NCBI GenBank assembly: GCA_023145475.1
Contig: JAGLDR010000076.1
Location: 5,488-69,487 of the forward strand
Direction of reading: 5' to 3'
DNA length: 64,000 bases
Source: a bacterium
GTDB taxonomy: Bacteria > UBP6 > UBA1177 > JAGLDR01
The position numbers and the translations under genes are program-made. Of the stretch, positions 3,498 through 62,476 are shown piece by piece (position 1 is the stretch's first letter; each line of letters opens with the position of its first letter). Under the pieces are notes generated by a model. The model saw only the letters and a program-made list of their open reading frames with translations. It was not told where the DNA came from and ran no database searches.

Positions 3498-3519
3498 ATT
3501 ACCCTCGCTTAAGTCAAAT

Positions 3520-15425: not shown

Positions 15426-15469
15426 TACGAAGCAAATTAGTGGGTACAACTTTTTTTGGAGGTCGTGTG

Positions 15470-17299: not shown

Positions 17300-17319
17300 C
17301 TTTACTGTAGGAGTTGACG

Positions 17320-18240
17320 GTGAAAAAAGGAGTGTTACTATTTTTTACATTTTTATTGTTTTCCTGCAATTGCTCACCATCTCAACCCTCAACCGATTAT
17401 GACAATGATTCCGACACTCAACTCTCAACTGATCGCGACAGTGATCTTTCAACTCATCACGACAGTGATGCTACAACCGACACCGATTACGACTCACCCA
17501 TCACCGATTCCAATAACGACATCGCAACTGATGCTGATATTCATGAACAGTGCCTTGATCTGAGAATACAGCAAAATGTCATCAAATCGGGGTTTCCATT
17601 AAAGGACAAAAATGGAAAGATAACATTCTGCCGTCCAGAATGTGATACACCGACAGAGACAGATCCGCAGTGTGTCAGAAATATATGGGATTGGAACAAT
17701 TGGGGTGTCTATCAAACCTATCTGAATGATGAAGAAAAAAAGACCTCTCCAGAATGTTATCCGTGGCCATGTATCATCACAGAGATGAAGGCATCTCATA
17801 CAAATATGAAAAGTAGCTGTGATCGGTTTCTTGCCGTTAACAATTATGGTTCTTCAATGGGAACAATTTCTGATCTTCGCGTCAGTGAAGGAATCGCCGG
17901 AATTGAGATGGGAGGATATGTATCGGGATATAACTCACTGCGAGCAATGGCATATCACATTGAAAAAGATGCGTTTGAACCGGTTGGGTACAGTGGCGCT
18001 TATACTGGATTCAATTACGGAAGATTTCTTTTGACAACCGCAAACGGAGATTGGAGCAAAGAAACTTTCACACAAACATATATCATTTCAGCAAAAAGAA
18101 TGAGTGAAAACCATTGGAAATATGAAGTTATTTACGATGATGAGCAAAGGAAAAGTTATTGTCCAACAGTTTCCCCATGGACAAACAGCGTTATGTATGA
18201 AATGGGATTCGGCTCTTTTGATGGGCAATATCAGTTATGA
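17320..18240 (+). CDS. lipoprotein with acidic linker, paralogous module family A
   Basis: GTG start after a GGAG RBS gives MKKGVLLFFTFLLFSCNCS (lipobox), then a D/S/T-rich linker. The conserved module KSGFPLKDKNGKITFCRPECDTPTETDPQCVRNIWDWNNW...ECYPWPC is shared with the 22874-24400 protein. Confidence 0.5.
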   Translation: MKKGVLLFFTFLLFSCNCSPSQPSTDYDNDSDTQLSTDRDSDLSTHHDSDATTDTDYDSPITDSNNDIATDADIHEQCLDLRIQQNVIKSGFPLKDKNGKITFCRPECDTPTETDPQCVRNIWDWNNWGVYQTYLNDEEKKTSPECYPWPCIITEMKASHTNMKSSCDRFLAVNNYGSSMGTISDLRVSEGIAGIEMGGYVSGYNSLRAMAYHIEKDAFEPVGYSGAYTGFNYGRFLLTTANGDWSKETFTQTYIISAKRMSENHWKYEVIYDDEQRKSYCPTVSPWTNSVMYEMGFGSFDGQYQL

Positions 18241-18339
18241 AAAACACCTGCCGGAACAGTTCCAGCAATTCGAGATATCAAGTGCTGGTGTGAAGAAAAG
18301 GGATTGGGATGTGAGAGTGTCTTTAAATAACAGAAGGAA

Positions 18340-21300
18340 GTGATGAAAAATGTTCTAAGGTCTTTAAAATTAAAAGGAGTAGTTGCTGTAATATTCCTTA
18401 TTTTTGCAACACTTCATGCAACGGAAAGCTCAAACTATTATTCTGTGAGAGCTTACAACGCTTCGCCTGAAGCTGTTCAATTTCTTCAATCAAATATGGA
18501 AAAGATCTATTACGACCGTTATGGAATGCCGACTTATATAGTTAAGCTGGAAAATTTAAGTGTCCTGTCTCAGTATTCTGGGATAGAAGTTAACTTCGGT
18601 GTAACATCTTCTGAATACAACAGCATTGATCTTAATGAAACTGTTCCTTCTAAGTATAGTTGGGATTTTGGTAATACTGTTGACACTTCCCGTTCGGGAT
18701 GGAAAACTAAAGATTCCACTGGAAATGATTGGCCTGAACATGACTGGCCATCATATCCTGCGATGACAGTTGAATTGTTAAACAATGTTAATGATTATGT
18801 TACACAACAGTTGCCCGTAGAAGATATTGAACGGGTAGTTAGATCCAATATCGCCTCTGCACTTTATTTCATAGAATACAATATTGCCGCAGAATCTGTA
18901 TATAACAGCCGATGGGATCGTGAGGATTTCAACCCATCACTTGTAGACATTGATGCTGATAATGATCATTGTGTCGATTATTTTCCCAATGACTGTCTGT
19001 CTGCCAAGAATAAAGATAGTGATAACGATGGTGTAGTTGACGAACTAGATAACTGCCCCAATACTAAAAATCCGGGACAGACGGATTTTGATAAAGACGG
19101 GACAGGTGATTTGTGTGATCCATGTCCGAGACGATTCGGTTCAGCGACGGGTCTAGATAGTGACGGAGATGGAATAGATGATGGCTGTGATAACTGTCCA
19201 CTTCATTACAACAAACTTGAACCGATAAATCCTTTTAGTGAAATTATTTCTGCACCCATAAGTAAGTTTTTCAAAATAACTGATGAAAATAATGAACCCT
19301 TAAATAAAGGGCTGGAGCTTTATTATGAGGGCGGGGCTTTTTATTCAGGTGGTTATATTTATTATGCTTTTAGTGATATTAAAGAAGAGGATCTTGGTTA
19401 TTTTTTTACAGAAGAAGAGATTGAGTTCTACAATTCGAATCCCAATATTTTTGGTGATAAGTTCCTTTTATCCACTCCAATTTATCCTTTCAATGGAGTT
19501 CCTGTCACTTATTCTACAGAAATTGACCTGTTTAATGGAAGATCAGCTCTCTTCTTTTCGTTTAATTATCTCTGGCAACCTGACCATGATCTTGATGGCA
19601 TAGGTGATGTCTGTGATATGCCGGGCGAAGTTGTGAGAGAGAGGATTCCAACAATAGATGATGCTGGAAAACTCGTTCTTGATTCCGATGATAAAGCTCT
19701 GTTTGTTCCTCAAATAGGAGATGGATTTGCATACAATAAGATAAAAACAGTCAAAAACCTCACAACTCGAAAGGCATATTTGCCATGGATTGGGGGATAC
19801 GACGATACGGCGGTTAAAATAGAACTTCAAATGCCGCTTTACAGCAAGGATCCTCAAAGTTGCGTGACAAGATTCTCCTATCAAATTAATGATAATCTGA
19901 CACTTGATGACAATGTATGTCAGTCGGCAGTACATTTTTGTGCAGTGGATAAACGACTAAAACATCTCTGGGGAGAAGACGGTTACTGTTCGACATCAGA
20001 TAAAACAGAGCGATACAACGACAATTCAAATCTTGCAAAACCGCTTTTTCCGTTTGGCTTTAGCCACGGAAGTGATGATTTTTCAGAATCCTCAGTTTAT
20101 AGCTGGAGAATGCGAATATCATCCGCGAAAACAGGCAATTCTCTGAAAAATATGGGTTTTGAAACTGAATACTTATCAAATCCAAACAGTGATGTATACA
20201 GATCCATCCAACAGACTTCTACAACAGGAGAGAGTGTTTATTGGAATTGGAGACGAGATTGGTGGTATTGGAATGAATGTTACAGACCTGATAAAACAGA
20301 CGATCCCAGATGTCTGGCACTAAAAACTCCTCCAGAGCTGAGGGATAGTGAAAATACCATGTATTATGCGATTTCAACAAATATTGTTCCTGTGACAAAA
20401 GCTCAAGCATCTGCAGGAGATGTTCCCTCCTATAACAACGAAGCTACATCAATCAATAACAACTACTTTTTCAACAGCAAGGAAGACCGATTTTCCGGTT
20501 CTGATTTTTGGAAAAAAGATGCGTCAAAATACGGAAGAGCACACCGCTACAGTATGAATAAGATGGAGCTTAATTATCACGGAAAAGTATACTCAACACC
20601 CGACCCTGAAATAGATCCACCGATTGACCTTTCCAAGTTCCAAATGGAACTCTGCATTGATTGTTGGTGGAGAATACCTCTTACAATATTGGATGATGAG
20701 ATGATGAAATATCAACTTGGACGCTGGTCTCTTGAAAAAAGAATTGATAATGTATTGCACTTTTTTGCTGAACCTCTTTCCATTCCTGAAAACGCCATGC
20801 TTTTTATGAGCGCACCTGATAGTGGAGAACTCTTTTCTGTTGTCCAACATTCGGGACAAAATGAAGCTACAAGCTATACTTTAGAGATGAGTCCAAAAGA
20901 TGGTGGGATTGATTGGCAGATTATGGGAGCACTTGCATCATTTCCTGAATCTCTTAAAATCACTGCTGTTACTCCTCATCGCGGGCGTATTTATATCCTT
21001 GGACACACTCCTGATGCCTCAGAAGAAACTCTTTTTGCCATTACTCCTGAAACAATTCCCCCTGAAGGCATCACTCTTCCCAACTCTCAAGACAGACCTC
21101 AATTTGTTGTTAGCAATGTGAGTGTAACAGGAATAAGTGAGGACTCATTCGACGAAATACAAATAATATCTTCAGGAGAGAAGTTGTTCTTGGTTGGCTC
21201 TGATGCAACAGGAGGTGAAACAAAAACTTTTAAATTAAACACCGAAACGACACTGTTTGAAGAGGTAGCAGGTCAATCTCCTGCCTATCGTAAAATATAT

Positions 21301-22692
21301 AATCTCAAGAAAAGTTCTGGATATATTTTTCTTATTGGAGGGATGAATACTAACAACGATGCACTAAACGACATGTGGCGATTCAACACTGAAACAGAAA
21401 TATGGGAGCAACTGCTTCTTACACTTCAGGGGGATTTCAGAAAGGTAATTATTCAAGAGGTTGAAGGGAAATTGATTGCCGCAAACCCCATTATGGATGG
21501 CAACACAACACATCCTGCATTTACATTTGACCCAACGATTCAGAATATCAACAATATTGTTATTGAGTATGTTGAAATTCCTGTCACAGAAACAAAGTAT
21601 ATGTCGGATGAAAACTACTGTTTCTTGCAGAGAGATAGCTCTCTTTTTGGTGGTTTACTGTTTGGAAACAGCTGTATTCCATTCACTACAAGAAATCACG
21701 CATTTTATCAGATGAATGGTCTGGTCAACGATGTTGCAGGATATAACAACTATCTCTATACCTCACTTGACAACGCTGTAACCGTTCTTGATATTTCAAA
21801 CCCATCAAACATAGCAGAAGTATTGTCAATTCCGACTGATTTTGTGGTGCATGATATTGATATCAAAAACGATACCGCTTTTGTTACCGTAAATAACGGT
21901 ATTGCTTCGTATGATATTTCCGATGTGAACAACATTGTTTTGCAAGACTTCCTTATCACCTATAATACCGCAAACTTTGTCTATAGTTCAACCGGTCCAG
22001 TCACCGACAGCTACGGGAACCCCGTTCTTTCATCTGGAGAGCTTGGAGACACTACCGAATTAGTAATTGAAGGTAATTTGCTCTACGCAGCAGATGGACA
22101 CGGCATCACCGTGGTTAATATCTCAGATCCATCAAACTTGACGGTTGTCAACAATGTTTATACATCGGGAAACACCGAAACACTCGCCCTCACTGATGAT
22201 AAAATCTATGCGTATGATCGCTACAGTCTCAAGATTTATGATAAAGCAACACTCAATCAAGTCTACGCAGACTATCTTGATGAAGATGACTTTGGCTTTA
22301 CCGAAGATGAGCCGTGTGAAAACGCTCACTTCACTTCATACAACGGTGTTGTATACGCAGACTGTTTCCTCTCTTCATCAGTCTACACTATCGAACAAAA
22401 CTCTTATCTGTACGAGTTCCATCCGATGAGTGGTGACAGCGTTGAACTTGGTGACACATACATATCCGGTCAGTATGGCTATTTTGCCGATGGAACAGGA
22501 GTCAGAGTCAGTTATTTTGATCCGACGGCGCCTGTTTGTGGTGATGGCGTTGTTGAAGGCGATGAAGTGTGCGACAATAACATCGTTGCCTGTACAACAC
22601 TCAGCGGTGACTACATCGGCGGTGATGCCCCTTGTAATTCGACCTGCAACGGATACAATGAAAGTGGCTGTGAAGATGATGATGGATGGTAG
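18340..22692 (+). CDS. giant secreted mosaic protein: TSP type-3 Ca-binding repeats + LVIVD beta-propeller repeats + C-terminal Myxococcus-type Cys-rich repeat
   Basis: 1450 aa with a signal peptide. TSP3 repeats at about nt 19000-19200 ([38 protein letters not shown]). LVIVD-like repeats at about nt 21730-22250 ([31 protein letters not shown]). The C-terminal [15 protein letters not shown]...C resembles the myxobacterial cysteine-rich repeat. Confidence 0.7.
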   Translation: [1450 protein letters not shown]

Positions 22693-22719
22693 ATAATTAA
22701 TCTCCCTGCCTATCGGCAT

Positions 22720-22736
22720 CCCCCTTATTAAGGGGG
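22720..22736 (+). terminator. GC-rich hairpin (CCCCCTTA-TT-AAGGGGG region) downstream of the 1450-aa gene; no U-tract
   Basis: A 7-bp stem with a 3-nt loop lies 28 nt after the stop codon. It lacks a trailing T-run, so a canonical intrinsic terminator is uncertain. It could be an attenuating or RNA-stabilising stem-loop. Confidence 0.25.
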
Positions 22737-22761
22737 ACTGAGGAGGATAAAAAGGAGCGGT

Positions 22762-22770
22762 TGATATAAT
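22762..22770 (+). promoter_or_regulatory. candidate extended -10 promoter (TGATATAAT)
   Basis: TGnTATAAT at 22762-22770, directly after the hairpin. The six-frame ORF start at 22769 lies inside this element, which supports the later lipoprotein start at 22874. Confidence 0.3.
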
Positions 22771-22873
22771 GCGTAATATGTTAAATTTATTCAACAAGGG
22801 GTTGCAACCCCTTGTTGCCTTTCGGGCGACCACACGGGGGCGCCCCTACAAGACATCTCGTTTATTGGGGCGT

Positions 22874-24400
22874 ATGTTGATACGCCCTTACGGATTACTG
22901 TTTATCTTATTTCTTGTTATCTCTTGCACCACCACATCCACAAAAACAGATGCAGATGTTGTTGCAGACAGAGATATAGTTGTTGATGCTGATCTTGATT
23001 TCTCTGATTTTGATCGTGATTTACTTGATGAAGACAATGTGTCTGACTTTGATTCGATTGATGAAAAGCCAGATGCCGATTCAATCACTTGTCTTGATTT
23101 GAGATTCAACGAAAACACCATTAAGACAGCATTCCCATTTGAGGATAAGAACGGAAAAATCACTTTTTGTCGCCCTGGGTGTGATACCCCAACAGAGACT
23201 GACCCTCAGTGTGTCCGCAATATCTGGGAGTGGGACAACTGGAGTGAATATCAAGTCTATCTCGAAGCTCAAAAAAAAGATCCCAATCAAAAGTGGGAGA
23301 GAGAATGTTATCCATGGCCGTGTAAGTTGCCAGATATGAAAGCATATACCAATCCGTCCTACTATCACAAATGTGATAGATCGCTTGCCGTGCATGGATT
23401 TGATGCAAATATGGGGATAATATGGAGTCACGGCATGAGTGACGGAGTTGCAGGAATGGGTATGACTCACAGTTTACGAACTATTGAATACGATCCTGAA
23501 AAAGATGAATATATGACTTTGGGGCAAATGGACACTCTCTCTTTTAATGAGAATAGATATGTTTTACGAGTCTATGACAGAGATCCAGAGTTTCCTAGAT
23601 CGTTTATTGTTTCAATTTTAAGAAAAAACGGAAAATATTATTATGAGTTAATTTACGACAATAAAAATCACAATTCATGGTTATCTCGCCCTTCATTTGC
23701 TGGTAGAAAATGGGTTTTAATTCAAGTAAGGGAGGGGAAACAAAGTAGTGTTACTGAATTCAAATACGCCTCTTCAGAAGATTGGGAATGGCACAATCTT
23801 GAGGGAATAAACAACTATACGGGGGAAGGGAACATAGTTGGAGACCATTTGACATTTATCACCAACAACCGAGAAATATACTATTGCGATTTAAGAAAAT
23901 ATCCGAAACATATTAATGAATGTACACTCATTAACAGAAAAATGGAAACAGATGACTATGAATTAGGACACAGTCCTAGAATAGATCTAGAAAACGAAAA
24001 AAGATTGGTTTACAATGTGTATCGACAGAATATCTTTGTGGAAGTTGACTTAACTGACATTGATAATCCAATATACAAGAGATATGAAGTGCCAAAAAAT
24101 AAAGACGGAGATTATGCGTGGGAAATTGAGTCATTGAAAGGAGATAAACTAGTTTACGCCAGTTATTATAGCATCGAAGGAGGAGTAAATACTCTCGGTT
24201 GTTTCTACCGTTTTGACAAAGAAAAAATCTACTGCCCAGAAGAGGAAACAAGTGGAATTGACATGGGTTTCAATGTTTTTTGGGGCAAATGGCATCTTTG
24301 GAAAAACATAGGTACCCCAACTGCTATGATGCGAGACTGGGAGTGTTATTGTGAGGAGACGGGGATTTGTCCGTTGGCAAAACAAAAGGGCTTGAAATGA
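22874..24400 (+). CDS. lipoprotein with acidic linker, paralogous module family A (larger paralog)
   Basis: Start at 22874 gives MLIRPYGLLFILFLVISCTTTS (lipobox) followed by an acidic linker. The module KTAFPFEDKNGKITFCRPGCDTPTETDPQCVRNIWEWDNW...ECYPWPC is near-identical to that in the 17320 gene. Confidence 0.55.
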   Translation: MLIRPYGLLFILFLVISCTTTSTKTDADVVADRDIVVDADLDFSDFDRDLLDEDNVSDFDSIDEKPDADSITCLDLRFNENTIKTAFPFEDKNGKITFCRPGCDTPTETDPQCVRNIWEWDNWSEYQVYLEAQKKDPNQKWERECYPWPCKLPDMKAYTNPSYYHKCDRSLAVHGFDANMGIIWSHGMSDGVAGMGMTHSLRTIEYDPEKDEYMTLGQMDTLSFNENRYVLRVYDRDPEFPRSFIVSILRKNGKYYYELIYDNKNHNSWLSRPSFAGRKWVLIQVREGKQSSVTEFKYASSEDWEWHNLEGINNYTGEGNIVGDHLTFITNNREIYYCDLRKYPKHINECTLINRKMETDDYELGHSPRIDLENEKRLVYNVYRQNIFVEVDLTDIDNPIYKRYEVPKNKDGDYAWEIESLKGDKLVYASYYSIEGGVNTLGCFYRFDKEKIYCPEEETSGIDMGFNVFWGKWHLWKNIGTPTAMMRDWECYCEETGICPLAKQKGLK

Positions 24401-25353
24401 GAGTTTTTGTTTTTATTATATCCTTTTTTCCACTTCCGCGAACACTTCAGTACGATAAATATGTTACCGTTGACACAAAACTGCCACAATACAGTGGTTT
24501 TGAAGCAGACAACTGTGACTCTTTGACTTTTCACTATGGTGGAGATGAATTTCCTGTTGCTTCATGTCAGGCAGCCGTGCATTACTGCGCCAGTAACTAC
24601 AGGTGGGTTAAGGAGAGGGGTAAATGGGGCGAACAAGGTTACTGTACCACTTCAAACAAAGCTGGAGGCACAATGAATGACATCTGGCGATTTGACATTC
24701 AAACAGCAGAAATACAAGAAGATGGAAGTTTGGAGAACGATCACTTTAAATGGATTGGTCACAGAGTGAACAATATTCAAATATCTGGAAGCAGACTTTT
24801 CGCCGCATCAAGCGATAAAATCCGTATCTACACCATAAACGGTGGTGCATTGACTCGCGTTGGTTTAATTAATGCAGATAATCCGAGAAACATCAGAATA
24901 TTCAACGACAAATTGTTTGTTGCAGATGGAAGACAGGTCTCAGTATGGAATATCAGCGGTGATACTCCTGTTTTTGAGCGAGAAATTGAAACCAGTTACA
25001 AGGTGAAAGACCTTGAAATTGTAGATGGAAAACTGTTTGTTTACGAAGAAGAGACATATTGGCAGTGGTTCTGGTTGCGTAAACGGACAAAATTTGAGAT
25101 AATAGAGTTCGGAACGGATGAAGGAGACGAGACAGTGGTCTATACCAACGGTGTGAGTTGTAAAGATAGTGAGATGATGCAAGACGACAATTGTTTCTAT
25201 CTTGGCTGTCAAGATAGAAACAATAGAATAAACCTTGAAGCTCCTTTTGTTGGTGAAGCAGTGGATGGAGAGAAACGATATTTTAGAGATAGTTATTTAT
25301 ATGAAGACAGAATATATCAATCGTTTGATGGAGCTGTTCATGTTAGTAAATAA
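24397..25353 (+). CDS. secreted LVIVD-like beta-propeller repeat protein sharing a Cys module with the giant protein
   Basis: ATGA start/stop overlap with the upstream gene. SCQAAVHYCASNYRWVKERGKWGEQGYCTTSNK parallels [29 protein letters not shown] in the 1450-aa protein. LVIVD-like stretches are present (FVADGRQVSVWNISGDTPV). Confidence 0.5.
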   Translation: MRVFVFIISFFPLPRTLQYDKYVTVDTKLPQYSGFEADNCDSLTFHYGGDEFPVASCQAAVHYCASNYRWVKERGKWGEQGYCTTSNKAGGTMNDIWRFDIQTAEIQEDGSLENDHFKWIGHRVNNIQISGSRLFAASSDKIRIYTINGGALTRVGLINADNPRNIRIFNDKLFVADGRQVSVWNISGDTPVFEREIETSYKVKDLEIVDGKLFVYEEETYWQWFWLRKRTKFEIIEFGTDEGDETVVYTNGVSCKDSEMMQDDNCFYLGCQDRNNRINLEAPFVGEAVDGEKRYFRDSYLYEDRIYQSFDGAVHVSK

Positions 25354-25387
25354 TAATTTTATACACAATTATTCGTAGGAGTAAAAA

Positions 25388-26611
25388 ATGAAGAAAACAA
25401 TGATTATCGCGCTGTTAAGCGTAGCTTTTTTGATGTTATCATGTGGGTCAGGGCCAACCTGTACGCCACATAAAGGTCCAAAACCACTCTCTTATCAAGT
25501 AACTTTTGTTGAGAGCAGTGGAACAGGCGAAATGATGGTTCGTGCAACGGGTATGGGTTGTACTTTAGAGCAGGCATCACTTGATGCAAAACGCGCTGCA
25601 ATTTGGTTTGTACTCGAAGGTGGAGATAAGCCAATTTTGAAAAGTGCTGGTGAAAAGATGAAGGCAGTTGGAATGGAGACACAGATGTTTGAGAATCCAA
25701 ATATCTATATTCGCCATCAAAGTCCAGTTAAATCAAAAACTCGTGAAGCGGGAAAATTGAAGGTTGCCTATGTTATCAAACTTGATGTTGCATTGATTAC
25801 AGAAAAGATGGCATCAATCGGCGTTATTACCAGTGAAGAAGATCTTGGCGAAGAGCTCGGATTGCCAACACTTGCCGTTATGCCAAAAAGCTATGATCAA
25901 TTCTCAAACACAACAGTCGCTGTTATGCAAGAGTATCTGCAAGACAAGTCATTTGAGGTTTTGGTTGTCAGTCAGGCAAACAAAGTGAACAACTTAGTAC
26001 AGAAACTTTCGACACTCGAAGGTGCAGAGCCAGATCCAATGCATGATATGGCACTCTCACTCGGAAGTGACATCTATGTTACAATTTCATCTTCTCTTGC
26101 AATTGGTTCAACAGCTGGAATGGAGACCGCAAAAGCCTCTGTTCAAATTCAAGCGTATGAAACTGCAACAGGTAAATTGGTTGCTTCAACAAGTGCGTAC
26201 AGTCCAGAAAGACAAGTGACCGACAAGAATGCACTGATTCAAGAAGCGACAAATGATGCAGCAGCAAAAGTTGTCTCTCAAATCAAAAAAGAGTGGATGA
26301 AGATGGCTAAAAAAGGCAAGCCATTTAAGTTGACCGTTCTTTCAAATAGCAGCGATGGCCCTGCCGTTGATGCAGCAGTGTATGGTGCTTTAAAAGCACT
26401 CAGCAAGCGACCAATTAAGCGAACAGCTGGTGGAAAATCATCATTCAGTTATATTGCATGGATTAAGAATATTCCAAATGCATACGAACTGCTTGGTGCA
26501 ATTAAACAACACTATAAAGGTCCAGGATCTTTAGAGAAGGTAAGCGATACAGGTTCATTCCTGGTCATAAAAGCTGCTGGAAATGGCGAGATTGAAATCA
26601 CTATTGAATAG
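25388..26611 (+). CDS. lipoprotein, hypothetical (LPP20-like segments)
   Basis: MKKTMIIALLSVAFLMLSCGS lipobox; Ala/Lys-rich segments of the LPP20/FlgP type (ASVQIQAYETATGKLVAS...NDAAAKVVSQI). No confident family assignment. Confidence 0.5.
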   Translation: MKKTMIIALLSVAFLMLSCGSGPTCTPHKGPKPLSYQVTFVESSGTGEMMVRATGMGCTLEQASLDAKRAAIWFVLEGGDKPILKSAGEKMKAVGMETQMFENPNIYIRHQSPVKSKTREAGKLKVAYVIKLDVALITEKMASIGVITSEEDLGEELGLPTLAVMPKSYDQFSNTTVAVMQEYLQDKSFEVLVVSQANKVNNLVQKLSTLEGAEPDPMHDMALSLGSDIYVTISSSLAIGSTAGMETAKASVQIQAYETATGKLVASTSAYSPERQVTDKNALIQEATNDAAAKVVSQIKKEWMKMAKKGKPFKLTVLSNSSDGPAVDAAVYGALKALSKRPIKRTAGGKSSFSYIAWIKNIPNAYELLGAIKQHYKGPGSLEKVSDTGSFLVIKAAGNGEIEITIE

Positions 26612-26619
26612 GTGAAACA

Positions 26620-27876
26620 ATGAAAAAGATAGCATTGATTATCGCACTTCTTTTTATCTGGGGGGGCACTGCGTGTGCCTCCTCCCCTAAGAAGAAAAAT
26701 CATGGATATGATAAGGCAAAAAAAGAGGCGATGAGTGCATTTGATGAGCTAGATGGCGGCACTACTGCTATTCCTGCGAAGTCAGGCAACACAAAATCAA
26801 AAGCAAAACAAGAGTTCACAGAGCTTGACACTGCCTCAGCCTTGCTGAAGGGTGTTGGATATGGCGTAGCGCCTCAAAAGGCAAAGACAGACGCACTTGG
26901 ACAACTTTCAAATGCAATTATTGCCAAAGTGAAGGGAGTTACAACACTTTCACAAGAGGAAAAGAAGGGTGTCTACACCGAAATGCTGGCAAATGATATT
27001 GCTATTGAGTCAAACTCTCTGCTGAAAGGGGTGAAGTTTTCATCTCCAGCAAAAGAGGGAAAGCAGTACAAAGTCGTTGCATGGATGACACAACAATCTG
27101 TTATGCAGACTCTGCACTGGTTGATGTCAACAATGCCGGCAAATCTTGATGGAATGACCAATGTTGAGATGGAAAAGGTGATGACCTCAATTCATTTGAC
27201 GACAGCACTCATTTTTGCCGTTCCACCAAAGGCAATTCCAAAAAGAGACTCACTCCTGAAAACACTTGCAGCTTTGAAAAAAGAGATAGAAAAACGGGTT
27301 AATTTTGGTAGTTTTATCGTCTCTTTACCACAAAAAGTGAAGTATACGCTTTCGTTAAATGGCAAGAAGATTGAAGCAGAGAAACGCTATTTTCTTCCAC
27401 AGGCAAAGTACAATATTCACTTTACTTCAGAGGGATATAAAAAGATTGGTGCATCATTCTTTCTGAAAAGAGGAGACAGAAAAGTTGTTGAAATTCCTCT
27501 TGTTCCCGTGCTTGCACAGAAAGTTGATGTCTTTGTTCGTGTCGTCTCGCCAGTGAAGGTTATAAACGCAGTTGAGCAAGTTTTGCTTGATTACGGAATG
27601 ACTCCTGTCCAAGATTCGTCTGTGCGACACTCTGTCGTTATTCAAATGTCAGGAAACACAATCACTGTCGGTAAATACCGGAAATATCAGCTGATTATGG
27701 ATTTGCATTCGTTCAAAGATGGCAAGAAATATAAAATTGTCCATTATGAGCACAAACCATTCTTTGTTACCCCTGAAACTGAAAAACAGCTTATCCAAAA
27801 AAATGCGAGAAAAGTCGCAGTTGCTGTTACCAAACAATTCTTTGCGAAGATTAATGTGAAGGATTATCTGAAGTAA
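26620..27876 (+). CDS. lipoprotein, hypothetical (LPP20-like N-domain, PEGA-like C-region)
   Basis: MKKIALIIALLFIWGGTACAS lipobox, 9 nt after the previous gene. LKGVGYGVAPQKAKTDALGQLSNAIIAKV is LPP20-like. Confidence 0.5.
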   Translation: MKKIALIIALLFIWGGTACASSPKKKNHGYDKAKKEAMSAFDELDGGTTAIPAKSGNTKSKAKQEFTELDTASALLKGVGYGVAPQKAKTDALGQLSNAIIAKVKGVTTLSQEEKKGVYTEMLANDIAIESNSLLKGVKFSSPAKEGKQYKVVAWMTQQSVMQTLHWLMSTMPANLDGMTNVEMEKVMTSIHLTTALIFAVPPKAIPKRDSLLKTLAALKKEIEKRVNFGSFIVSLPQKVKYTLSLNGKKIEAEKRYFLPQAKYNIHFTSEGYKKIGASFFLKRGDRKVVEIPLVPVLAQKVDVFVRVVSPVKVINAVEQVLLDYGMTPVQDSSVRHSVVIQMSGNTITVGKYRKYQLIMDLHSFKDGKKYKIVHYEHKPFFVTPETEKQLIQKNARKVAVAVTKQFFAKINVKDYLK

Positions 27877-27917
27877 ATTTGTAGAAACGACGAATCACCT
27901 TCCCTCTTTATAAAAAC

Positions 27918-27945
27918 TTGTGTTATTCAACCCACTCTATATAGT
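27918..27945 (+). promoter_or_regulatory. candidate sigma70 promoter (TTGTGT-16-TATAGT) upstream of the aspT-like gene
   Basis: -35 at 27918-27923 and -10 at 27940-27945; the GGAGGAG RBS and ATG at 27984 follow. Confidence 0.25.
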
Positions 27946-27983
27946 GGACAAGGAAGTCCTATTTGTTTTAATGGAGGAGAGAG

Positions 27984-29693
27984 ATGGATTTAATTTATTC
28001 TCAGTTACGAGAGTTTCCCTTAATGAGCCTATTTATCGCACTGGCTCTTGGATATGTTGTTGGAGAGATAAAACTTGGCAAATTTCAAATTGGAGGAATT
28101 GCAGGCACACTTATTGTTGCTGTTTTTATTGGACAGATTGGAGGAATCGCGATAGCAGGCGATGTGAAATCTATCTTTTTCACCCTCTTTATTTTTATGG
28201 TTGGCTACAATGGTGGCCCACAATTCTTTGCCTCATTAAACCCGCGAGCATTAAAAAAACTATTTGCAGCAATAAGCATGACCGTTTTGGGACTGCTGAC
28301 CGTTTTAGGAGTTGCAATTCTAGCTGGACTTGATAAAGGGTTAGCGGCAGGTTTAGCGGCTGGAGGACTCACTCAATCAGCAATTATTGGAACGGCAGGA
28401 AACGCTATTGATAAATTAGGTCTTGCACACGGTGTTGCAGAAACACTCAAAACAAATGTTGCAGTTGGCTATTCTGTAACCTATATATTTGGCTCTATTG
28501 GCCCTATTTTAATGGTAATCATTCTTCCGCTCATCTACAAGTGGAACCTTAAAGACGAGGGTGCAAAGTTGGCTGAAAAACTTGGTGGTGGATCAAGACA
28601 GTTGACTGAAGGCCAATTTATGCCGCTTAATAGATTTAGCACAAGAGATTTTATAGTTTCAGAAAGCTCTCGCTATCTTAATATGAATGTAAAAGAGTTT
28701 GAAGAAAAGATTGAAGGAGACCTCGTTGTTGAGGAGATTATAAGAGATGGCATAAGTCTCGAATTGACTCTATCCACAGTGATTGAGAAAGATGATAGAG
28801 TTGCCGTAAGCGGTCTCGTCAATGATTTTGCAAAACTAGGAGATGCCTTAGGCAAAGAAATTGGTGAATTTGATAAAAGTTCAGCCTTGATAATTGAACA
28901 TAGACGCATAGTCCTTACCAATAAAAACCTTGATGGATTATCGTTGCAAGAGATTCACGACAAGTCAACTAAGAAGGAGCGACATGGTGTTTTTATCGCA
29001 AAGATATCAAGAAATCTTAAACCGTTAGAGACACTTCCTGGCACACTTGTTCATGTTGGAGATGAGATAACTCTTGTTGGAAAACCTGAAGAGATTAACC
29101 GTGTTTCAAAGCTCCTTGGATATAATTCCCCACTTCCAAGCGTTACAACATTCGCCATTTTGGGACTTGGAATGGCACTTGGATTTTTGATTGGTGAGAT
29201 ATCCTTCAAAATTGCAGGAACCTCTGTCTCATTAGGCTCAGGTCTTGGCTGCCTTGTTACGGGATTGACATTCGGATATTTACGAACTAAACATCGAAAA
29301 CTGGGCGGAATAAATAGCGGCGCCGCAAACTTCTTACAATCTTTTGGACTTGCTGTTTTTGTTGGAGTAGTCGGCATAAATGCAGGCGAACCAGCACTTA
29401 ACGCAATAAAAGAACATGGAATAACACTTCTCTTGCTTGGTGTTGTCGTAACGATGATTCCGCAAATTGTACAGTTCTTAATCAACTATTATATTTTGAA
29501 AATCAAAAATCCTGTGCAAGCACTCGCTGTTCTAACTGGCTCAAGAAGTGGAAATCCTGGTTTTGCAGTTCTACTTGAAAAGACAGGCAACAGCTCTGGA
29601 ACACCTGATTTCACGATGACATACGCTGTCGCAAATATATTTTTGACACTATGGGGCCCAATTATTGTAGCACTAATACCGATGGTAAATTAA
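27984..29693 (+). CDS. aspT: aspartate:alanine antiporter-like transporter (AAE family, YidE/YbjL/AspT type)
   Basis: 569 aa with two membrane domains flanking a cytoplasmic pair of TrkA-C-like domains, which is the AAE-family architecture. It sits directly upstream of an aspartate 4-decarboxylase, as in the known aspT-asdA pairs. Confidence 0.7.
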   Translation: MDLIYSQLREFPLMSLFIALALGYVVGEIKLGKFQIGGIAGTLIVAVFIGQIGGIAIAGDVKSIFFTLFIFMVGYNGGPQFFASLNPRALKKLFAAISMTVLGLLTVLGVAILAGLDKGLAAGLAAGGLTQSAIIGTAGNAIDKLGLAHGVAETLKTNVAVGYSVTYIFGSIGPILMVIILPLIYKWNLKDEGAKLAEKLGGGSRQLTEGQFMPLNRFSTRDFIVSESSRYLNMNVKEFEEKIEGDLVVEEIIRDGISLELTLSTVIEKDDRVAVSGLVNDFAKLGDALGKEIGEFDKSSALIIEHRRIVLTNKNLDGLSLQEIHDKSTKKERHGVFIAKISRNLKPLETLPGTLVHVGDEITLVGKPEEINRVSKLLGYNSPLPSVTTFAILGLGMALGFLIGEISFKIAGTSVSLGSGLGCLVTGLTFGYLRTKHRKLGGINSGAANFLQSFGLAVFVGVVGINAGEPALNAIKEHGITLLLLGVVVTMIPQIVQFLINYYILKIKNPVQALAVLTGSRSGNPGFAVLLEKTGNSSGTPDFTMTYAVANIFLTLWGPIIVALIPMVN

Positions 29694-29743
29694 TAATTAA
29701 AGAATCTTAGGAATCTATTCCTGAGTTTCGCACGGAGGAATGT

Positions 29744-31339
29744 ATGAAAAGAAAAGATGAAGACAGATTGAGTAACCTGAGTCCATTTGAGGTGAAAAAC
29801 ATCTTGCTCGAACTTGCAGATTCAAAACATGACAGACACCTTATAAACGCCGGGCGGGGAAATCCAAATTGGGTTGCAACAGTCCCACGGGAAGCGTTTT
29901 TCAAATTAGGTGAGTTTGCACTCCATGAGGCACAACGAGGATTTCAAAAATATGACAATTTTGGTGGTGTTGCCCAAATTAAAGGCATCTCTCAACGATT
30001 TCAGGATTATTTTAAAGATAAAAAAGAGTTTAATGGTGTAAAGCTTCTGCTTGAAGCAGTTGAGTATTGTCAAAAAGAGTTGGGTATTGAGAGCGACAGT
30101 CTGATTGATGAATGGGTGGATGGCATTCTGGGTGATAACTACCCCGTTCCAGATAGAATGCTCAAAGAGAGTGAAAAAATTGTGCGACAATATCTGATGC
30201 AAGAGATGAACACTGAAAAGAGACCACTGAACGACACATTTGACATTTTTGCAGTCGAAGGTGGAACAGCGGCAATGGTCTATATCTTCAACTCTCTCAA
30301 ATCAAACAGACTGCTGAACAGTGGCGACACAATTGCCATTGCAGCACCAATATTTACCCCCTATATCGAAATGCCCGGATTTGAAGATTACAACCTCAAG
30401 ACAGTAGAGATTGTTGCAGACGAGATGACAGGATGGCAAATTCCTGATGCTGAACTTGAAAAATTGAAAGATCCAAAAATCAAGGCATTCTTTTTGGTAA
30501 ATCCAACCAATCCACCATCCGTTAAACTCGATGATAGAACTCTGAATAAAATTGTAGAAATCACCAAAGAGAGACCAGACCTTATTCTTCTAACCGATGA
30601 TGTTTATGGAACTTTTACTGATAACTTCACCTCTCTCGCAATTATGGCTCCTAAAAACACTATTTTAGTCTACTCATTCTCAAAATATTTTGGAGCAACT
30701 GGTTGGAGACTTGGGGCAATTGCAATAGCGAAGGATAATATCTTTGACAGACTGATTAGCAAGCATAATGCAGAGACAAAAAAGCTTCTCAACAAGCGAT
30801 ATGAGGGAATCTCCCTCCACCCCGAAGAGGTAACATTTATTAATAGAATGGTGGCAGACAGCAGAGCCGTTGCACTGAACCACACTGCAGGATTATCAAC
30901 ACCACAGCAGATGCAGATGGTGCTTTTTAGCCTTTTCTCACTCTCTAGTTTTGGGAAACAGTACAAAATTGAAGCAAAAGAGATTGTAAGAGAGCGATAT
31001 GCAGCAGTTATAGAAGACTCTCCTGTTGTGCCACTTGTGCCACTTGACAATCCTCACGGAGCATTTTACTACATTGAAATTGATGTGTTGCGAATTGCCA
31101 TCAAAATGTATGGTGAGAAGTTTGGAAAATGGTTAGTCGACACACACAATCCACTTGATTTTGTCATCCGATATGCTGAAGAGAAGAAGGTGATTGCAAT
31201 GCCAGGAGGCGGATTTGACGCACCAGAATGGTCATTTCGTCTCTCTCTTGCAAACAATTTCAAATCTGAATACCGTGAGATTCACACATACGGAATGGAA
31301 ATCCTCAAAGAATACTACCAAGAATTCAAAGAGCAATAG
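29744..31339 (+). CDS. asdA: aspartate 4-decarboxylase (PLP-dependent, aminotransferase class I fold)
   Basis: 531 aa. LSPFEVKN, NAGRGNPNW, VEGGTAAMVYIF, PIFTPYIEMP, NPTNPPSVKLD, LTDDVYGTF, LVYSFSKYFGATGWRLG and ADSRAVALNHTAGLSTPQQMQM match AsdA-specific conserved blocks. Confidence 0.85.
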   Translation: MKRKDEDRLSNLSPFEVKNILLELADSKHDRHLINAGRGNPNWVATVPREAFFKLGEFALHEAQRGFQKYDNFGGVAQIKGISQRFQDYFKDKKEFNGVKLLLEAVEYCQKELGIESDSLIDEWVDGILGDNYPVPDRMLKESEKIVRQYLMQEMNTEKRPLNDTFDIFAVEGGTAAMVYIFNSLKSNRLLNSGDTIAIAAPIFTPYIEMPGFEDYNLKTVEIVADEMTGWQIPDAELEKLKDPKIKAFFLVNPTNPPSVKLDDRTLNKIVEITKERPDLILLTDDVYGTFTDNFTSLAIMAPKNTILVYSFSKYFGATGWRLGAIAIAKDNIFDRLISKHNAETKKLLNKRYEGISLHPEEVTFINRMVADSRAVALNHTAGLSTPQQMQMVLFSLFSLSSFGKQYKIEAKEIVRERYAAVIEDSPVVPLVPLDNPHGAFYYIEIDVLRIAIKMYGEKFGKWLVDTHNPLDFVIRYAEEKKVIAMPGGGFDAPEWSFRLSLANNFKSEYREIHTYGMEILKEYYQEFKEQ

Positions 31340-31464
31340 TCGCACTAATATTATCATCTAAATTATCTGTGTAACACTCCTCAGTGTGGCTCTCAATCAA
31401 TATTTTTACTTTGTCCTTCTAATTGCTTATACTGAAACGATGAAATGACCCACTGGAGAGCAGA

Positions 31465-32781
31465 ATGGAAAAGAAAAAAAGAAGAAAAATCGGATTGACA
31501 ACGCAAATCTTTATCGCTCTGTTTGTTGGAGCATTTTTTGGTGTTATTCTCAATCTGTTGCCCAAAGAAAGCGCAATCGGAATATGGTCACAAGAGTGGA
31601 TTGTCAACCACTTTCTTACAACGGTTGGAGCAATGTTTATCGCATCAATCAAAATGTTGGTTGTTCCGCTTGTTCTCATCTCCCTTATTCTTGGAACTGC
31701 ATCAATTGGAGATATGCGCTCTGTCGGCAGAGTTGGCGGAAAGACACTCATCTTTTATTTGATGACGACAGCAATTGCGATTGGTACTGCACTTCTATTT
31801 GCGACTCTTTTTCAACCCGGGAGTAACTTGTCAATGCATCTAGCCGCTGGAGCAGCAAAAATTAAGGAAGCACCATCACTTCAAGAGATTATCATTGGTC
31901 TTGTTCCATCAAATCCTTTTAAAGCTCTTGCTGACGGAAATATGCTACAAGTTATTGTATTTTCTATTATTTTTGGGCTTGCTCTTGCCAGTCTTGGAAA
32001 AAAAGTAGAAAAACTTATGACCATTCTTGAGCAGATAAACGATGTGGTCATGCGGATGATTATGCTGATTATGTTGGTTGCTCCGCTGGGTGTTTTTGCA
32101 CTGGTTGCAAAAGTGTTTGCAACTGAAGGGTTCGCTGCCTTTGTACCACTTTTGTCCTATGTTGGCACCGTCTTTTTTGTCCTTATGTTTCACCTTTTTA
32201 TTGTCTACACGGGGGCGTTGCGGTTTATTGCAAATCTCAGCCCTTTTATCTTTTTCAAAAAGTTTTATTCCACAATGCTCTTTGCCTTTTCAACGGCAAG
32301 CAGTAACGCGACAATCCCTGTAACAATGGAAACAGTCGAACATAAAATGGGCGTTGACCGCTCCGTTGCCTCTTTTACCATCCCATTTGGTGCCACCATC
32401 AATATGGATGGAACGGCAATTATGCAAGGAGTCGCAGTTGCATTTATCGCACAGGCGTATGGCATCGACCTCTCGTTTGCTGACTATATGTTGGTGATTT
32501 TAACAGCCACGCTGGCAACCGTTGGAACCGCCGGCGTTCCTGGTGTTGGACTTATTACACTCTCAATGGTTTTGCAGCAGGTTAATCTTCCTGTTGAAGG
32601 AATTGCACTGATTATGGGCGTTGATAGAGTGCTTGATATGACAAGAACAGCGGTTAACATCACTGGCGACACTATCGTTACACTCATTGTTGGAAAATCA
32701 GAAAAGAAATTTGATAAAAGTGTCTTTTTAGACCCAAACGCAGGCATTGCGAACGAAGAGAGTGCCGAGAATATTATCTAA
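31465..32781 (+). CDS. dicarboxylate/amino acid:cation symporter (DAACS family, GltP/GltT-like)
   Basis: 438 aa; SSNATIPV and the hairpin-loop motifs (GATINMDGTA, TAGVPGVGLI) characterise the Glt transporter family. Confidence 0.85.
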   Translation: MEKKKRRKIGLTTQIFIALFVGAFFGVILNLLPKESAIGIWSQEWIVNHFLTTVGAMFIASIKMLVVPLVLISLILGTASIGDMRSVGRVGGKTLIFYLMTTAIAIGTALLFATLFQPGSNLSMHLAAGAAKIKEAPSLQEIIIGLVPSNPFKALADGNMLQVIVFSIIFGLALASLGKKVEKLMTILEQINDVVMRMIMLIMLVAPLGVFALVAKVFATEGFAAFVPLLSYVGTVFFVLMFHLFIVYTGALRFIANLSPFIFFKKFYSTMLFAFSTASSNATIPVTMETVEHKMGVDRSVASFTIPFGATINMDGTAIMQGVAVAFIAQAYGIDLSFADYMLVILTATLATVGTAGVPGVGLITLSMVLQQVNLPVEGIALIMGVDRVLDMTRTAVNITGDTIVTLIVGKSEKKFDKSVFLDPNAGIANEESAENII

Positions 32782-35092
32782 ACTCTACCATCGTCGATCC
32801 ATCTTTTCCCCCACCCGCAAACCGATACCCATAGTGAGAAACAAGCTCACCAAGTCTTGCACGAATCTTCTCTTTCAAGACACCCGTTCCATGACCATGA
32901 ATAATCTCAATAGAATAAACATCACCACTAAAGGCTCTATCAATCTCTATTTCAAGTCTGTGAATTGCCTCTTCTGCACTCATTCCTCGTAAATCGAGAG
33001 TAAATGAAGTAACACCACCCTGAGAAGTGGGTGCAATAAAGTGACTTTTAGCCTCTGGCTTCTTACCGACGACTATCAATCTGGAAATTGGCATTGTCAA
33101 CACCTTGCCATTTGCTCTGATTGTTGCATTCTTTCCTGAGAACGACTCTATAATTCCTTCAATTTTCAGTAACTTATCATAGACCACTGCCTCGCCTTTT
33201 TTAATGCTATCTTTCAAGTCACTCAGCGGTGTCCCACTCTTTTCATCTGTTGATATGGTCTGATTTTCTATCTTTTTTTGCAGAACTTTCTTCTCTTCTC
33301 TCACTTTATGCACTTGATTTGCCAACCGTTTTTCATCGATGGTTGCCAACCGTTTTTGCAACTCTTGCTCTTCAAGTTCCAGCAATTTTTTGAGTGCTCT
33401 GAATCGCTCTGCTTCAAAGGCTTTTTCTCTTTTTGCGTGCCGTTTTTTCAGCTCTTCGGCATCTTGCATCGCCTTCTCTGCCTGCATACGAAGCTGCTCT
33501 AACTCACGCTCTCTTTCTAACAATTCTGTCTCTTTTTTACGCAGTCTATTGATAAGTGGCTCTATTGAGTGTTCACCGCTTGAAAGCAGCGACTCGAGAC
33601 GACTAATAATTCCCTGAGGAAAACCTATCTTTCTTACAAGATTCAGCGCGTTACTCCCCCCAACAAGATTGTATAGAAAGTGGTAGGTTGGAACATTTTG
33701 CTCTTCATCATATCCCATCGCAACAGGGACAAAACTGTCGTGCTCTAGTGCAACACTTTTCACTTCGGCTAAGTGAGATGTTACAACTGTCCAGACACCT
33801 CTCTCTTGTAAAAATTCTAGAAATGCTCGCGCCATCGCACCACCCTGCAGCGGATCGGTTCCACTTCCTATCTCATCAATCAAAACTAACTCACGAGATG
33901 AGGCACTCTCTGCAATTCTCGAAAGTTCTCGCAAGTGGCTCGAAAAACTCGACTCTCCTGCGTGAGCACTTTGTAAATCGCCAAGCACCAGATGCACATT
34001 TTCAAAAAATGGAATTTCAACTCTTTCTGCGGGGACGGGCAAACCTCTGCGTGAAAGTTCGGCAACGGTATGCACTGTCTTGAGTGAAACTGTCTTTCCA
34101 CCCGCATTTGGCCCACTCACCACCATAATTCTCTGATTGTCAGCAAAAAGAAAATCATTTTTCACCAGTTCACTCTTGTTACTCAACATAACAGGAGGAT
34201 ACCACGCCTGAACGATATTTGTCCGAGAATCGCTAAAGTGAGGAACAGCACAGTGATAACTTTCACTCCACTTAAAAACAGTATAGAGCGTCTCAAGCAG
34301 TGTCGCGGCAAAAATCGCTCGCTTTATCTCGCCTCTTGCTCTAAATATGCTTCCTCGTAACTCATTGACAATTCTTGTTATTTCTTCATTTTCATCTGCA
34401 ACAAGCAGTGCAAGTCTATTGTTCGTATCCATCAAGGAAAGAGGTTCAAGAAAGGCGGTCTTTCCAGTGCGAGAATAGTTGTGAACAACGCCTTTTACCA
34501 CTCGTTTAAATGCCGATTTAAAAGGAAGAACATACCGATCGTGCCGTACAGTAAAATACTCTTCTTGCAACAATCCGCCATATTCTGGATCTTTTATCAT
34601 CGATGTTATTGCACTTCCTGCTCGAGTGTGAGTATCTCGCATTCTTGCACGAATCTTTTGCAACTCTTTTGATGCATCTTCAGCTATTTCACCTTTTGGC
34701 GTTACCGTATTAAAAATTTCATTTTCTAACTTTATTGGTGGAGAAATTGGTCCAATCTCAGACAAAATCGCTGTCGGGTATTCAGCATACCGAAGTGCAG
34801 AAAGTGTCTGACGAACCGTTCGCAAAAACTCTCCAATGTGGCGATATGCTCCAATCTCTAATGACTCATTTGCATCAAAAGCACGCATTGTCTCGTTTAC
34901 GCTATCGAGACTAAAACTCACTTGCACTGCCTCAGTTTTATGAAGTGTTTTATACTCTTCAAGCTGAGAAAACTTCTTTTCTGCCTCACTCTGTGAAAGT
35001 GGTGGCAAAGATTCTACTGCGGACTGTGCACCTTTTGAAGGAGCAAAAGATGCTATCCAACGCAGTATGTCAAACCATTCATTGTTGTACAT
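32774..35092 (-). CDS. mutS2: endonuclease MutS2 (MutS domain + C-terminal Smr)
   Basis: 772 aa; Walker A GPNAGGKT; the C-terminal Smr domain runs LDLRGMSAEEA...IIHGHGTGVLK. Its 3' end overlaps the convergent DAACS gene by 8 nt. Confidence 0.9.
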   Translation of the reverse strand: MYNNEWFDILRWIASFAPSKGAQSAVESLPPLSQSEAEKKFSQLEEYKTLHKTEAVQVSFSLDSVNETMRAFDANESLEIGAYRHIGEFLRTVRQTLSALRYAEYPTAILSEIGPISPPIKLENEIFNTVTPKGEIAEDASKELQKIRARMRDTHTRAGSAITSMIKDPEYGGLLQEEYFTVRHDRYVLPFKSAFKRVVKGVVHNYSRTGKTAFLEPLSLMDTNNRLALLVADENEEITRIVNELRGSIFRARGEIKRAIFAATLLETLYTVFKWSESYHCAVPHFSDSRTNIVQAWYPPVMLSNKSELVKNDFLFADNQRIMVVSGPNAGGKTVSLKTVHTVAELSRRGLPVPAERVEIPFFENVHLVLGDLQSAHAGESSFSSHLRELSRIAESASSRELVLIDEIGSGTDPLQGGAMARAFLEFLQERGVWTVVTSHLAEVKSVALEHDSFVPVAMGYDEEQNVPTYHFLYNLVGGSNALNLVRKIGFPQGIISRLESLLSSGEHSIEPLINRLRKKETELLERERELEQLRMQAEKAMQDAEELKKRHAKREKAFEAERFRALKKLLELEEQELQKRLATIDEKRLANQVHKVREEKKVLQKKIENQTISTDEKSGTPLSDLKDSIKKGEAVVYDKLLKIEGIIESFSGKNATIRANGKVLTMPISRLIVVGKKPEAKSHFIAPTSQGGVTSFTLDLRGMSAEEAIHRLEIEIDRAFSGDVYSIEIIHGHGTGVLKEKIRARLGELVSHYGYRFAGGGKDGSTMVEFR

Positions 35093-40572: not shown

Positions 40573-40600
40573 TTGAATTTCCTGAGAATAGATATAAAAT
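40573..40600 (+). promoter_or_regulatory. candidate sigma70 promoter (TTGAAT-16-TAAAAT) for the C25 peptidase gene
   Basis: -35 at 40573-40578 and -10 at 40595-40600. The AAGAGGGAG RBS and ATG at 40636 follow. Confidence 0.3.
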
Positions 40601-40635
40601 GGAATGAAAATATTCTCAACAAGAGGGAGTTCTCT

Positions 40636-62329: not shown

Positions 62330-62476
62330 AAGTATCCTCCCTTAACAAACACTCTCTACAGTTTAGTTACCGGAAGGTCTGTTTTTTCCGATTTCTACAC
62401 TATTAATATGTAATTATAAGGAATATTTGGAAAAACATCAACCATTATAAAGAAAAAAGAGGGGATTGTGTAGCAA

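Follow-up and report, generated by a model that had tools for sequence, protein, structure and literature searches.

The genes aspT and asdA, which lie side by side in a 64,000-nt stretch of bacterial DNA (contig JAGLDR010000076.1, positions 5,488–69,487; lineage UBP6; UBA1177; JAGLDR01; this whole stretch is referred to here as the window), probably form a two-gene operon for the classical aspartate-decarboxylation proton-motive cycle, a reading to which we assign a probability of about 0.85. In the proposed cycle AspT, acting as a homodimeric elevator-type exchanger, would bring L-aspartate (1−) into the cell in exchange for internal L-alanine (0), with net movement of negative charge inward, and AsdA, a pyridoxal 5′-phosphate (PLP) enzyme, would remove the beta-carboxyl group of aspartate in the cytoplasm to give alanine and CO2 with the consumption of one proton. 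Without the need for a respiratory chain, the two proteins together would set up both a membrane potential and a pH gradient, and they would also buffer the cytoplasmic pH. We infer the substrate specificity, electrogenicity and physiological role of the pair from its homology with the system of Tetragenococcus halophilus. A third gene on the same strand, encoding a transporter of the DAACS family (Table 1), would provide separate uptake of aspartate or glutamate and may aid the cycle, either by bringing in net aspartate or by priming the exchange. A preliminary description of the locus had matched it to the characterised aspartate-decarboxylation systems, and the match is borne out by the family models, by about 60% identity between AsdA and crystallised enzymes, by 10 of 13 binding or gating residues of AspT and by the linkage of the two genes in 73 of 80 loci. 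The three open reading frames are present at the positions, on the strands and with the lengths and intergenic gaps that it gave, and the AspT-like and AsdA genes are adjacent and co-oriented as it said. An aspartate-decarboxylation energy cycle that is wide but patchy in distribution thereby gains one more lineage; the module itself is a standard one and leaves current understanding of the system unchanged.

AsdA scores above the cut-offs of both NCBIfam equivalog models for the enzyme (NF006755, 737.8 against 321 bits; TIGR03801, 696.3 against 435.1 bits) and the best aminotransferase model other than these gives only 92 bits. On the strength of the equivalog models the protein is predicted to be an aspartate 4-decarboxylase (EC 4.1.1.12) converting L-aspartate to L-alanine and CO2, and an identical protein already carries the AsdA name in NCBI (entry P0001). 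It can be aligned over 526 residues, at about 60% identity, with the crystallised enzymes of Pseudomonas sp. ATCC 19121/P. dacunhae and Alcaligenes faecalis (2zy2–2zy5 and 3fdd; E = 2.7e-162 for PDB 2zy2 and 5.3e-159 for 3fdd), a P. dacunhae-type relationship that the preliminary description had anticipated, and it shares their PLP-lysine motif. The PLP lysine is K314, in an exact SFSKYFGATGWRLG motif (S-x-S-K type). In an alignment of 197 homologues, drawn from a protein search and from 80 genomic loci, R38, Y133, N256, D285, Y288, S311, S313, K314, R322, R374 and R499 are all present and invariant, and K18 is kept in 194 of the 197, the remaining three being gapped at this position. In A. 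faecalis numbering the equivalents, starting with that of K18, are K17, R37, Y134, N256, D286, Y289, S312, S314, K315, R323, R375 and R497. We take K18, R38 and Y133 (K17, R37 and Y134) to be AsdA-specific N-terminal or active-site residues, and the others presumably have the cofactor- and carboxylate-binding roles of fold-type-I enzymes, as judged from general knowledge of the aspartate aminotransferase fold together with the alignment. The enzyme thus keeps its PLP lysine and every family-invariant position.

AspT contains two copies of Asp-Al_Ex (PF06826) flanking two copies of TrkA_C (PF02080) and aligns from end to end with T. halophilus AspT (PDB 8xw5, E = 4e-65), the structures of which (8xw5, 8y1x, 9veb and 9oqy) have the same AAEx architecture of two membrane repeats with a central TrkA_C soluble domain. 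The T. halophilus comparison covers the AspT protein; this sequence was rebuilt by way of the PDB alignment, with a check of the native numbering. On TIGR03802 (cut-off 546.95 bits) the window protein scores 585.9 bits and the characterised T. halophilus protein 612.9 bits, so the model spans both. The window protein falls well short of the cut-offs for YbjL (242 against 645) and YidE (156 against 449). Escherichia coli YbjL and YidE have in common with it the Asp-Al_Ex/TrkA_C architecture and the YidE_YbjL duplication domain, but their genes, unlike the window aspT, are not linked to asdA. In a neighbour-joining tree AspT falls within a clade of 103 AAE proteins linked to asdA; the sister of this clade is T. 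halophilus AspT, beyond which lie E. coli YbjL and, further out, YidE. As this tree carries no bootstrap and the underlying identities are close (about 29% to T. halophilus AspT over trimmed columns and 27% to YbjL, with 23% to YidE), it is supportive rather than decisive. By family model and by tree, then, the transporter groups with AspT and not with YidE or YbjL; clustering with the latter was one of the outcomes that the preliminary description had named as refuting it.

In the AspT structure L-aspartate is contacted by T130, S132, Y167, L431, T496 and S498, with Q131, Y163, F66, F69, M70, F434 and Y524 as neighbours and gates (PMC12462496). At ten of these 13 positions the window protein has the identical residue (T130, Q131, S132, Y163, Y167, L456 for L431, F459 for F434, Y547 for Y524, F66 and F69), among them four of the six substrate contacts (T130, S132, Y167 and L456). 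The gating residues F66, F69, F459 and Y547 are invariant in all 101 AAE homologues encoded at asdA loci (73 adjacent to asdA and 28 second upstream copies).

The linkage of the two genes was followed in a scan for asdA that took one genome per GTDB species. At least 596 relatives were confirmed and the best 80 loci were analysed. In 73 of these 80 an AAE gene lies on the same strand as asdA at a distance of 6–247 nt (upstream in 58, downstream in 15). The nearest among the 80 (L001–L004, from Sulfurimonas, Lentimicrobiaceae, Bacteroidetes and Proteobacteria metagenome-assembled genomes, MAGs) encode AspT and AsdA at 58–61% and 61–63% identity respectively and have the same gene order. Two further contigs, L083 and L084, encode AspT at 87% and AsdA at 89% identity, and their nucleotide homology to the window is limited to 27984–31302; here the pair has genes for RND-MFP and FGE-sulfatase as its neighbours (the latter after asdA in L083) and the DAACS gene is absent. 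Each relative examined has different genes on either side of the pair. The conserved unit is strictly aspT–asdA, a self-contained pair across many phyla and changing neighbourhoods. In T. halophilus D10 the two components likewise form an aspD–aspT operon, adjacent and co-oriented as in the window. The asp operon of T. halophilus is said to have been described as plasmid-borne by Abe and co-workers in 2002; the best plasmid-encoded matches to the query AspT (PLSDB) are only about 40% identical to it.

The 50-nt gap between aspT and asdA has a GGAGG ribosome-binding site (RBS), no promoter-like match and no convincing terminator, from which we infer that the two genes are co-transcribed. The promoter scan used a sigma-70-like consensus, which may not be of the host's type, and by this measure there is no match either upstream of aspT or in the aspT–asdA gap, against a total for the region of 20 promoter-like matches compared with 13 ± 3 in shuffled sequences. 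The candidate at 27918 put forward by the preliminary description (TTGTGT-16 nt-TATAGT) agrees with the consensus at only 8 of 12 positions and lies below the threshold of the scanner. Its suggestion that each of the three genes may have its own promoter found no support, and for asdA a separate promoter is unlikely given the short gap with its GGAGG RBS and the similarly close same-strand spacing in the 73 linked loci. The small hairpin in the aspT–asdA spacer (−11.5 kcal/mol, z = −1.6) is matched by 15 of 200 shuffled sequences that fold equally well and is not followed by a U-tract; being weak and lacking this tract, it is not a convincing terminator. The region upstream of aspT gave no significant RNA fold (z = 0.13). 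No Rfam family matched at E ≤ 1 in 27000–33500 and none reached its gathering score anywhere in the window. We considered a riboswitch or leader RNA, either 5′ of the genes or between them, and ruled it out, there being no Rfam match and no fold better than those of shuffled sequences.

Table 1. Genes and intergenic regions of the aspT–asdA–DAACS locus, all on the plus strand (positions in the window).
Feature	Position	Strand	Size	Basis or remarks
Upstream region	27877..27983	+	107 nt	presumed promoter/5′ untranslated region; GGAGG-like RBS (GGAGGAGAGAG) immediately 5′ of the aspT ATG
aspT, predicted aspartate:alanine antiporter (AAEx family, TC 2.A.81)	27984..29693	+	569 aa	Pfam, TIGR03802, PDB 8xw5, tree
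aspT–asdA spacer	29694..29743	+	50 nt	GGAGG RBS 6 nt before the asdA ATG; small hairpin at ~29702–29729
asdA (aspD), predicted PLP-dependent bifunctional aspartate transaminase/L-aspartate 4-(beta-)decarboxylase	29744..31339	+	531 aa	NF006755, TIGR03801, PDB matches
asdA–DAACS spacer	31340..31464	+	125 nt	two weak promoter-like matches; GGAG before the DAACS ATG
DAACS/glutamate-transporter-family gene	31465..32781	+	438 aa	PF00375; predicted aspartate (or glutamate) transporter

A number of observations weigh against the proposed operon and its function. The assignment for the window lineage draws on gene presence, family membership, conserved residues and synteny, and the predicted co-transcription of aspT and asdA on the features of their spacer. 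As given above, identity between the window protein and the characterised T. halophilus AspT is only about 29%, and we know of no biochemically characterised member of the 103-protein clade to which the window protein belongs. Two of the six substrate contacts are changed, T496 conservatively to S522 and S498 to N524, and the neighbouring D495 is replaced by Arg, so that where T. halophilus AspT has D-T-x-S in the HP2 region the window protein has R521-S522-x-N524; it also has Ile for M70 and Asn for R76. TIGR03802 is not fully substrate-specific, as a second type of paralogue (with E131 and C or A at 496) passes it at 738 bits. At three Vibrio loci (L005–L007, from V. mediterranei, V. inusitatus and V. 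maritimus) asdA is 59–61% identical to that of the window and no AAE homologue is found within 10 kb, so that AsdA there evidently uses another transporter or none, and AsdA has been described as working without AspT in L. casei alf-2 (PMC6960285). Finally, one position of AsdA calls for caution. PDB entry 2zy5 differs from 2zy3 by the replacement of Arg487 with Ala, a mutation indicating that the depositors considered R487 important, and the equivalent residue in the window enzyme is G489 (nt ~31208–31210). Around this position two sequence types are found, PGGGFDAPEW in the window enzyme and the majority of homologues and PGRGFGSDRP in the crystallised Pseudomonas and Alcaligenes enzymes. 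The first type is also present in the aspT-linked asdA products of L001, L003 and L009. Among the 197 homologues the position is occupied by Gly in 120, Arg in 31, Ala in 16, Ser in 15 and Lys in 11. Arg is found chiefly at Burkholderiales loci (Burkholderia, Paraburkholderia, Cupriavidus and Pandoraea), with single loci in Acinetobacter, Paracoccus and Rhodobacterales, and in the L. acidophilus structure (3f6t) the residue is Val. Because R487 is variable across the family it is not family-defining, and any mechanistic role proposed for it cannot be general; G489 is nevertheless a caveat for the kinetic behaviour of the window AsdA.

Some of these points would also fit an AAE protein that moves an anion other than those of the aspartate:alanine exchange, with AsdA mainly assimilating or transaminating aspartate imported by the DAACS protein. 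The AAEx family includes succinate and glutamate carriers (PMC12462496), the HP2 residues are unlike those of the characterised AspT, a paralogue whose site is altered also clears the TIGR03802 cut-off, and AsdA is bifunctional by annotation. Such a division of labour is nonetheless highly improbable in our judgement, as the close linkage to asdA in the same orientation, present in 73 of 80 species drawn from many phyla, would be difficult to account for if the two proteins did not share their substrates. The window protein also agrees with AspT at 10 of 13 positions and fails the YidE and YbjL models, and its HP2 variant is the consensus among asdA-linked proteins: in the 73 asdA-adjacent homologues the R-S-x-N residues are in the majority (R in 58, S in 51 and N in 51). 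Most asdA-linked transporters therefore differ in the HP2 half of their binding site from the only AspT that has been solved and characterised, and because of this difference statements on specificity that are based on the AspT structure may not transfer to them directly. Tandem AAE paralogues lie 5′ of asdA in 28 loci, many of them from Burkholderiales and some alphaproteobacterial (including L013, L016, L021, L022, L025, L028, L032–L034 and L036). In these the asdA-distal copy, about 1.7–1.9 kb upstream of asdA, has Glu for Q131, Cys or Ala for T/S496, Thr at 498 and Gln or His at 495; it still passes TIGR03802 at 738 bits and may handle a different substrate pair, and the two types are not told apart by the cut-off of this model.

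The product of the third gene is a full-length SDF protein (PF00375, 434.7 bits) that passes none of the NCBIfam equivalog cut-offs (GltP, 303 against 638; DctA, 244 against 513; SstT, 143 against 308). Its best PDB match is Anc^Int (9bgz, E = 5e-109), one of three entries (9bgy, 9bgz and 9bh0) for a reconstructed ancestor of bacterial glutamate transporters that is uncoupled from Na+ and H+ (PMC12668577). Residues were mapped through the alignment to Anc^Int with the paired numbering of that paper (anchors P273/295, Q305/327, R369/397, N373/401 and T78/92), in which the Na+-site signature is [S/T]92–93, N310, [M/S]311, [D/E]312 and [D/E]405 and the H+ signature is a hydrophobic residue at 92 with L311 and N405 (PMC12668577). 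The Na+-site set is complete in the window protein (T101, T102, N313, M314, D315 and D402, corresponding to 92, 93, 310–312 and 405) and none of the three H+ signature residues is found in it. The aspartate-coordinating set is likewise present (S280, T317, D391, R394, T395 and N398, for S278, T314, D394, R397, T398 and N401 of GltPh), so that both sets are held in common with the Na+:aspartate symporters GltPh and GltTk. It differs in having Ala for R276 and Asp at position 295, where coupled forms have Ser and uncoupled forms Pro; at position 327 it has Gln, as does Anc^Int. From these residues its function is most likely Na+-coupled uptake of aspartate or glutamate. An H+-coupled GltP, the best NCBIfam name, was excluded by the signature residues and by the failed GltP cut-off.

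Anc^Int itself retains the same Na+-site residues, so the sequence does not discriminate between coupled and uncoupled transport, and the DAACS protein might be a facilitator of the Anc^Int/Ext^Int kind that carries aspartate without ion coupling and has been recruited beside AsdA, with decarboxylation pulling aspartate in by mass action. If so, the locus would provide two routes of aspartate entry that depend on metabolism and not on ion gradients, exchange by AspT and facilitated diffusion. The best structural match, Gln327 and the Na+ sites shared with Anc^Int are compatible with this, as is the position of the gene next to that for an aspartate-consuming enzyme, and uncoupled homologues of glutamate transporters are preferentially encoded beside enzymes of amino acid metabolism (PMC12668577). 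We nevertheless consider a facilitator very unlikely, as position 295 is Asp and not Pro and the adjacency of the DAACS gene to asdA is not conserved. Gln327, moreover, is also found in Na+-coupled excitatory amino acid transporters (EAATs).

The position of the DAACS gene 125 nt downstream of asdA, as given in the preliminary description, is correct, but the gene does not belong to the conserved system: no DAACS homologue (E ≤ 1e-10) was found within 10 kb of asdA at any of the 80 loci. Its adjacency to aspT–asdA is particular to the window genome. A contig with a close relative of this gene (L082; 98% identical in amino acids and 90% in nucleotides) is homologous to the window only at 31474–32782; in it the DAACS gene lies between genes for a TSP3-repeat protein and a DUF2344 protein, and both asdA and mutS2 are absent. 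As homology to the aspT–asdA relative stops at 31302 and homology to the DAACS relative starts at 31474, the spacer is the junction of two independently inherited segments. More distant DAACS orthologues (60–61% identical) are present in the related lineage (L081 10001–12649 and L089 5001–7629), in a conserved block made up of genes for a lipoate-protein ligase, a protein of about 640 residues, the DAACS protein, a Peptidase_M18 protein (aspartyl aminopeptidase family) and pantothenate kinase. The ~640-aa protein has a weak TSP3 repeat match in L089 and none to Pfam in L081, and the M18 neighbour ties the transporter to the supply of acidic amino acids in these genomes. In L087 (5001–7767, a Candidatus Delongbacteria MAG) the closest taxon-named DAACS homologue, 64% identical to that of the window, is followed after 20 nt by a second paralogue of the SDF family, forming a tandem pair.

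Against this background it is doubtful, though conceivable, that all three genes make up one co-regulated functional unit in which the DAACS protein primes the exchange or brings in net aspartate when the alanine is kept for biosynthesis or catabolism. The DAACS gene is on the same strand and close to asdA, and the spacer between them has no terminator-like site and folds no better than shuffled sequences (z = 0.52); the protein keeps all the mapped aspartate-coordinating side chains, and the link of its orthologues with an M18 gene points to acidic amino acid metabolism. The distribution of the genes argues the other way, with no DAACS homologue near asdA in the 80 loci, the parts split in the nearest relatives (aspT–asdA followed by FGE-sulfatase in L083, the DAACS gene alone in L082) and the nucleotide homology to each relative stopping at the spacer. 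The two promoter-like matches in the spacer (31325–31354 and 31405–31433, each 9 of 12) are further, weak evidence against a single unit.

There is about an even chance that the three-gene adjacency has no functional meaning at all, a horizontally acquired aspT–asdA pair having landed, or been rearranged, beside a resident transporter gene. The nearest AspT and AsdA from outside the lineage (58–61% and 61–63%) are encoded by MAGs of Campylobacterota, Bacteroidota and Proteobacteria. The first taxon-named matches of the window translation initiation factor IF-2 include Desulfobotulus, Geoalkalibacter and Thermodesulfobacteriota. The flanks of the pair differ in all relatives, and in the Sulfurimonas MAG asdA is followed after about 500 nt by a DDE transposase gene (L001 4402–5460), a finding consistent with mobility of the pair. 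On the other side the composition of the block is native (GC 0.40–0.405 against 0.411 for the window, ordinary GC at third codon positions (GC3) and a tetranucleotide distance ranking 28th of 61 chunks) and no tRNA, transposase or repeat was found at its boundaries. Recent horizontal acquisition was ruled out on the ordinary GC, GC3 and tetranucleotide distance and the absence of a tRNA or transposase; with native composition and unmarked boundaries any transfer must be old. A chance juxtaposition of this kind overlaps with the two-gene module proposed here and does not contradict it. The lineage is uncultured and poorly sampled: the window IF-2 (P0121) is 77% and 65% identical to two relatives (the IF-2 proteins P0122 and P0123), after which identity drops to about 55%, all of these relatives being from MAGs, and the window genome was not among the GTDB species representatives recovered in the scan for asdA.

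The genes surrounding the locus are unrelated to it. The same-strand genes on the 5′ side of aspT are poor in Pfam matches and lipoprotein-like, and on the 3′ side a MutS2/Smr gene (32774–35092, minus strand) is convergent with the DAACS gene, so that aspT, asdA and the DAACS gene form an island. The 3′ ends of the two convergent genes overlap by 8 nt (32774–32781), which leaves no space for a terminator between them. Seven same-strand genes (15440–27876), nearly devoid of Pfam matches, precede aspT; among their products are a protein of 1450 residues that has LVIVD, Kelch and TSP3 repeats (18340–22692) and lipoprotein-like proteins, one with DUF6175 (25388–26611). TSP3-type paralogues recur at 61454–63997 in the window and next to the DAACS gene in contig L082. 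The protein- and peptide-degrading lifestyle proposed in the preliminary description has modest support from two peptidase genes in the window, at 40573–42381 and 1833–3581 respectively, for a Peptidase_C25 protein (gingipain family; 147 bits, with a weak PorU-like match) and a Peptidase_S10-like serine carboxypeptidase. The window is also rich in secreted repeat proteins, which together with the peptidases suggests extracellular proteolysis, and an aspartate-decarboxylation cycle fits an organism that encodes secreted peptidases.

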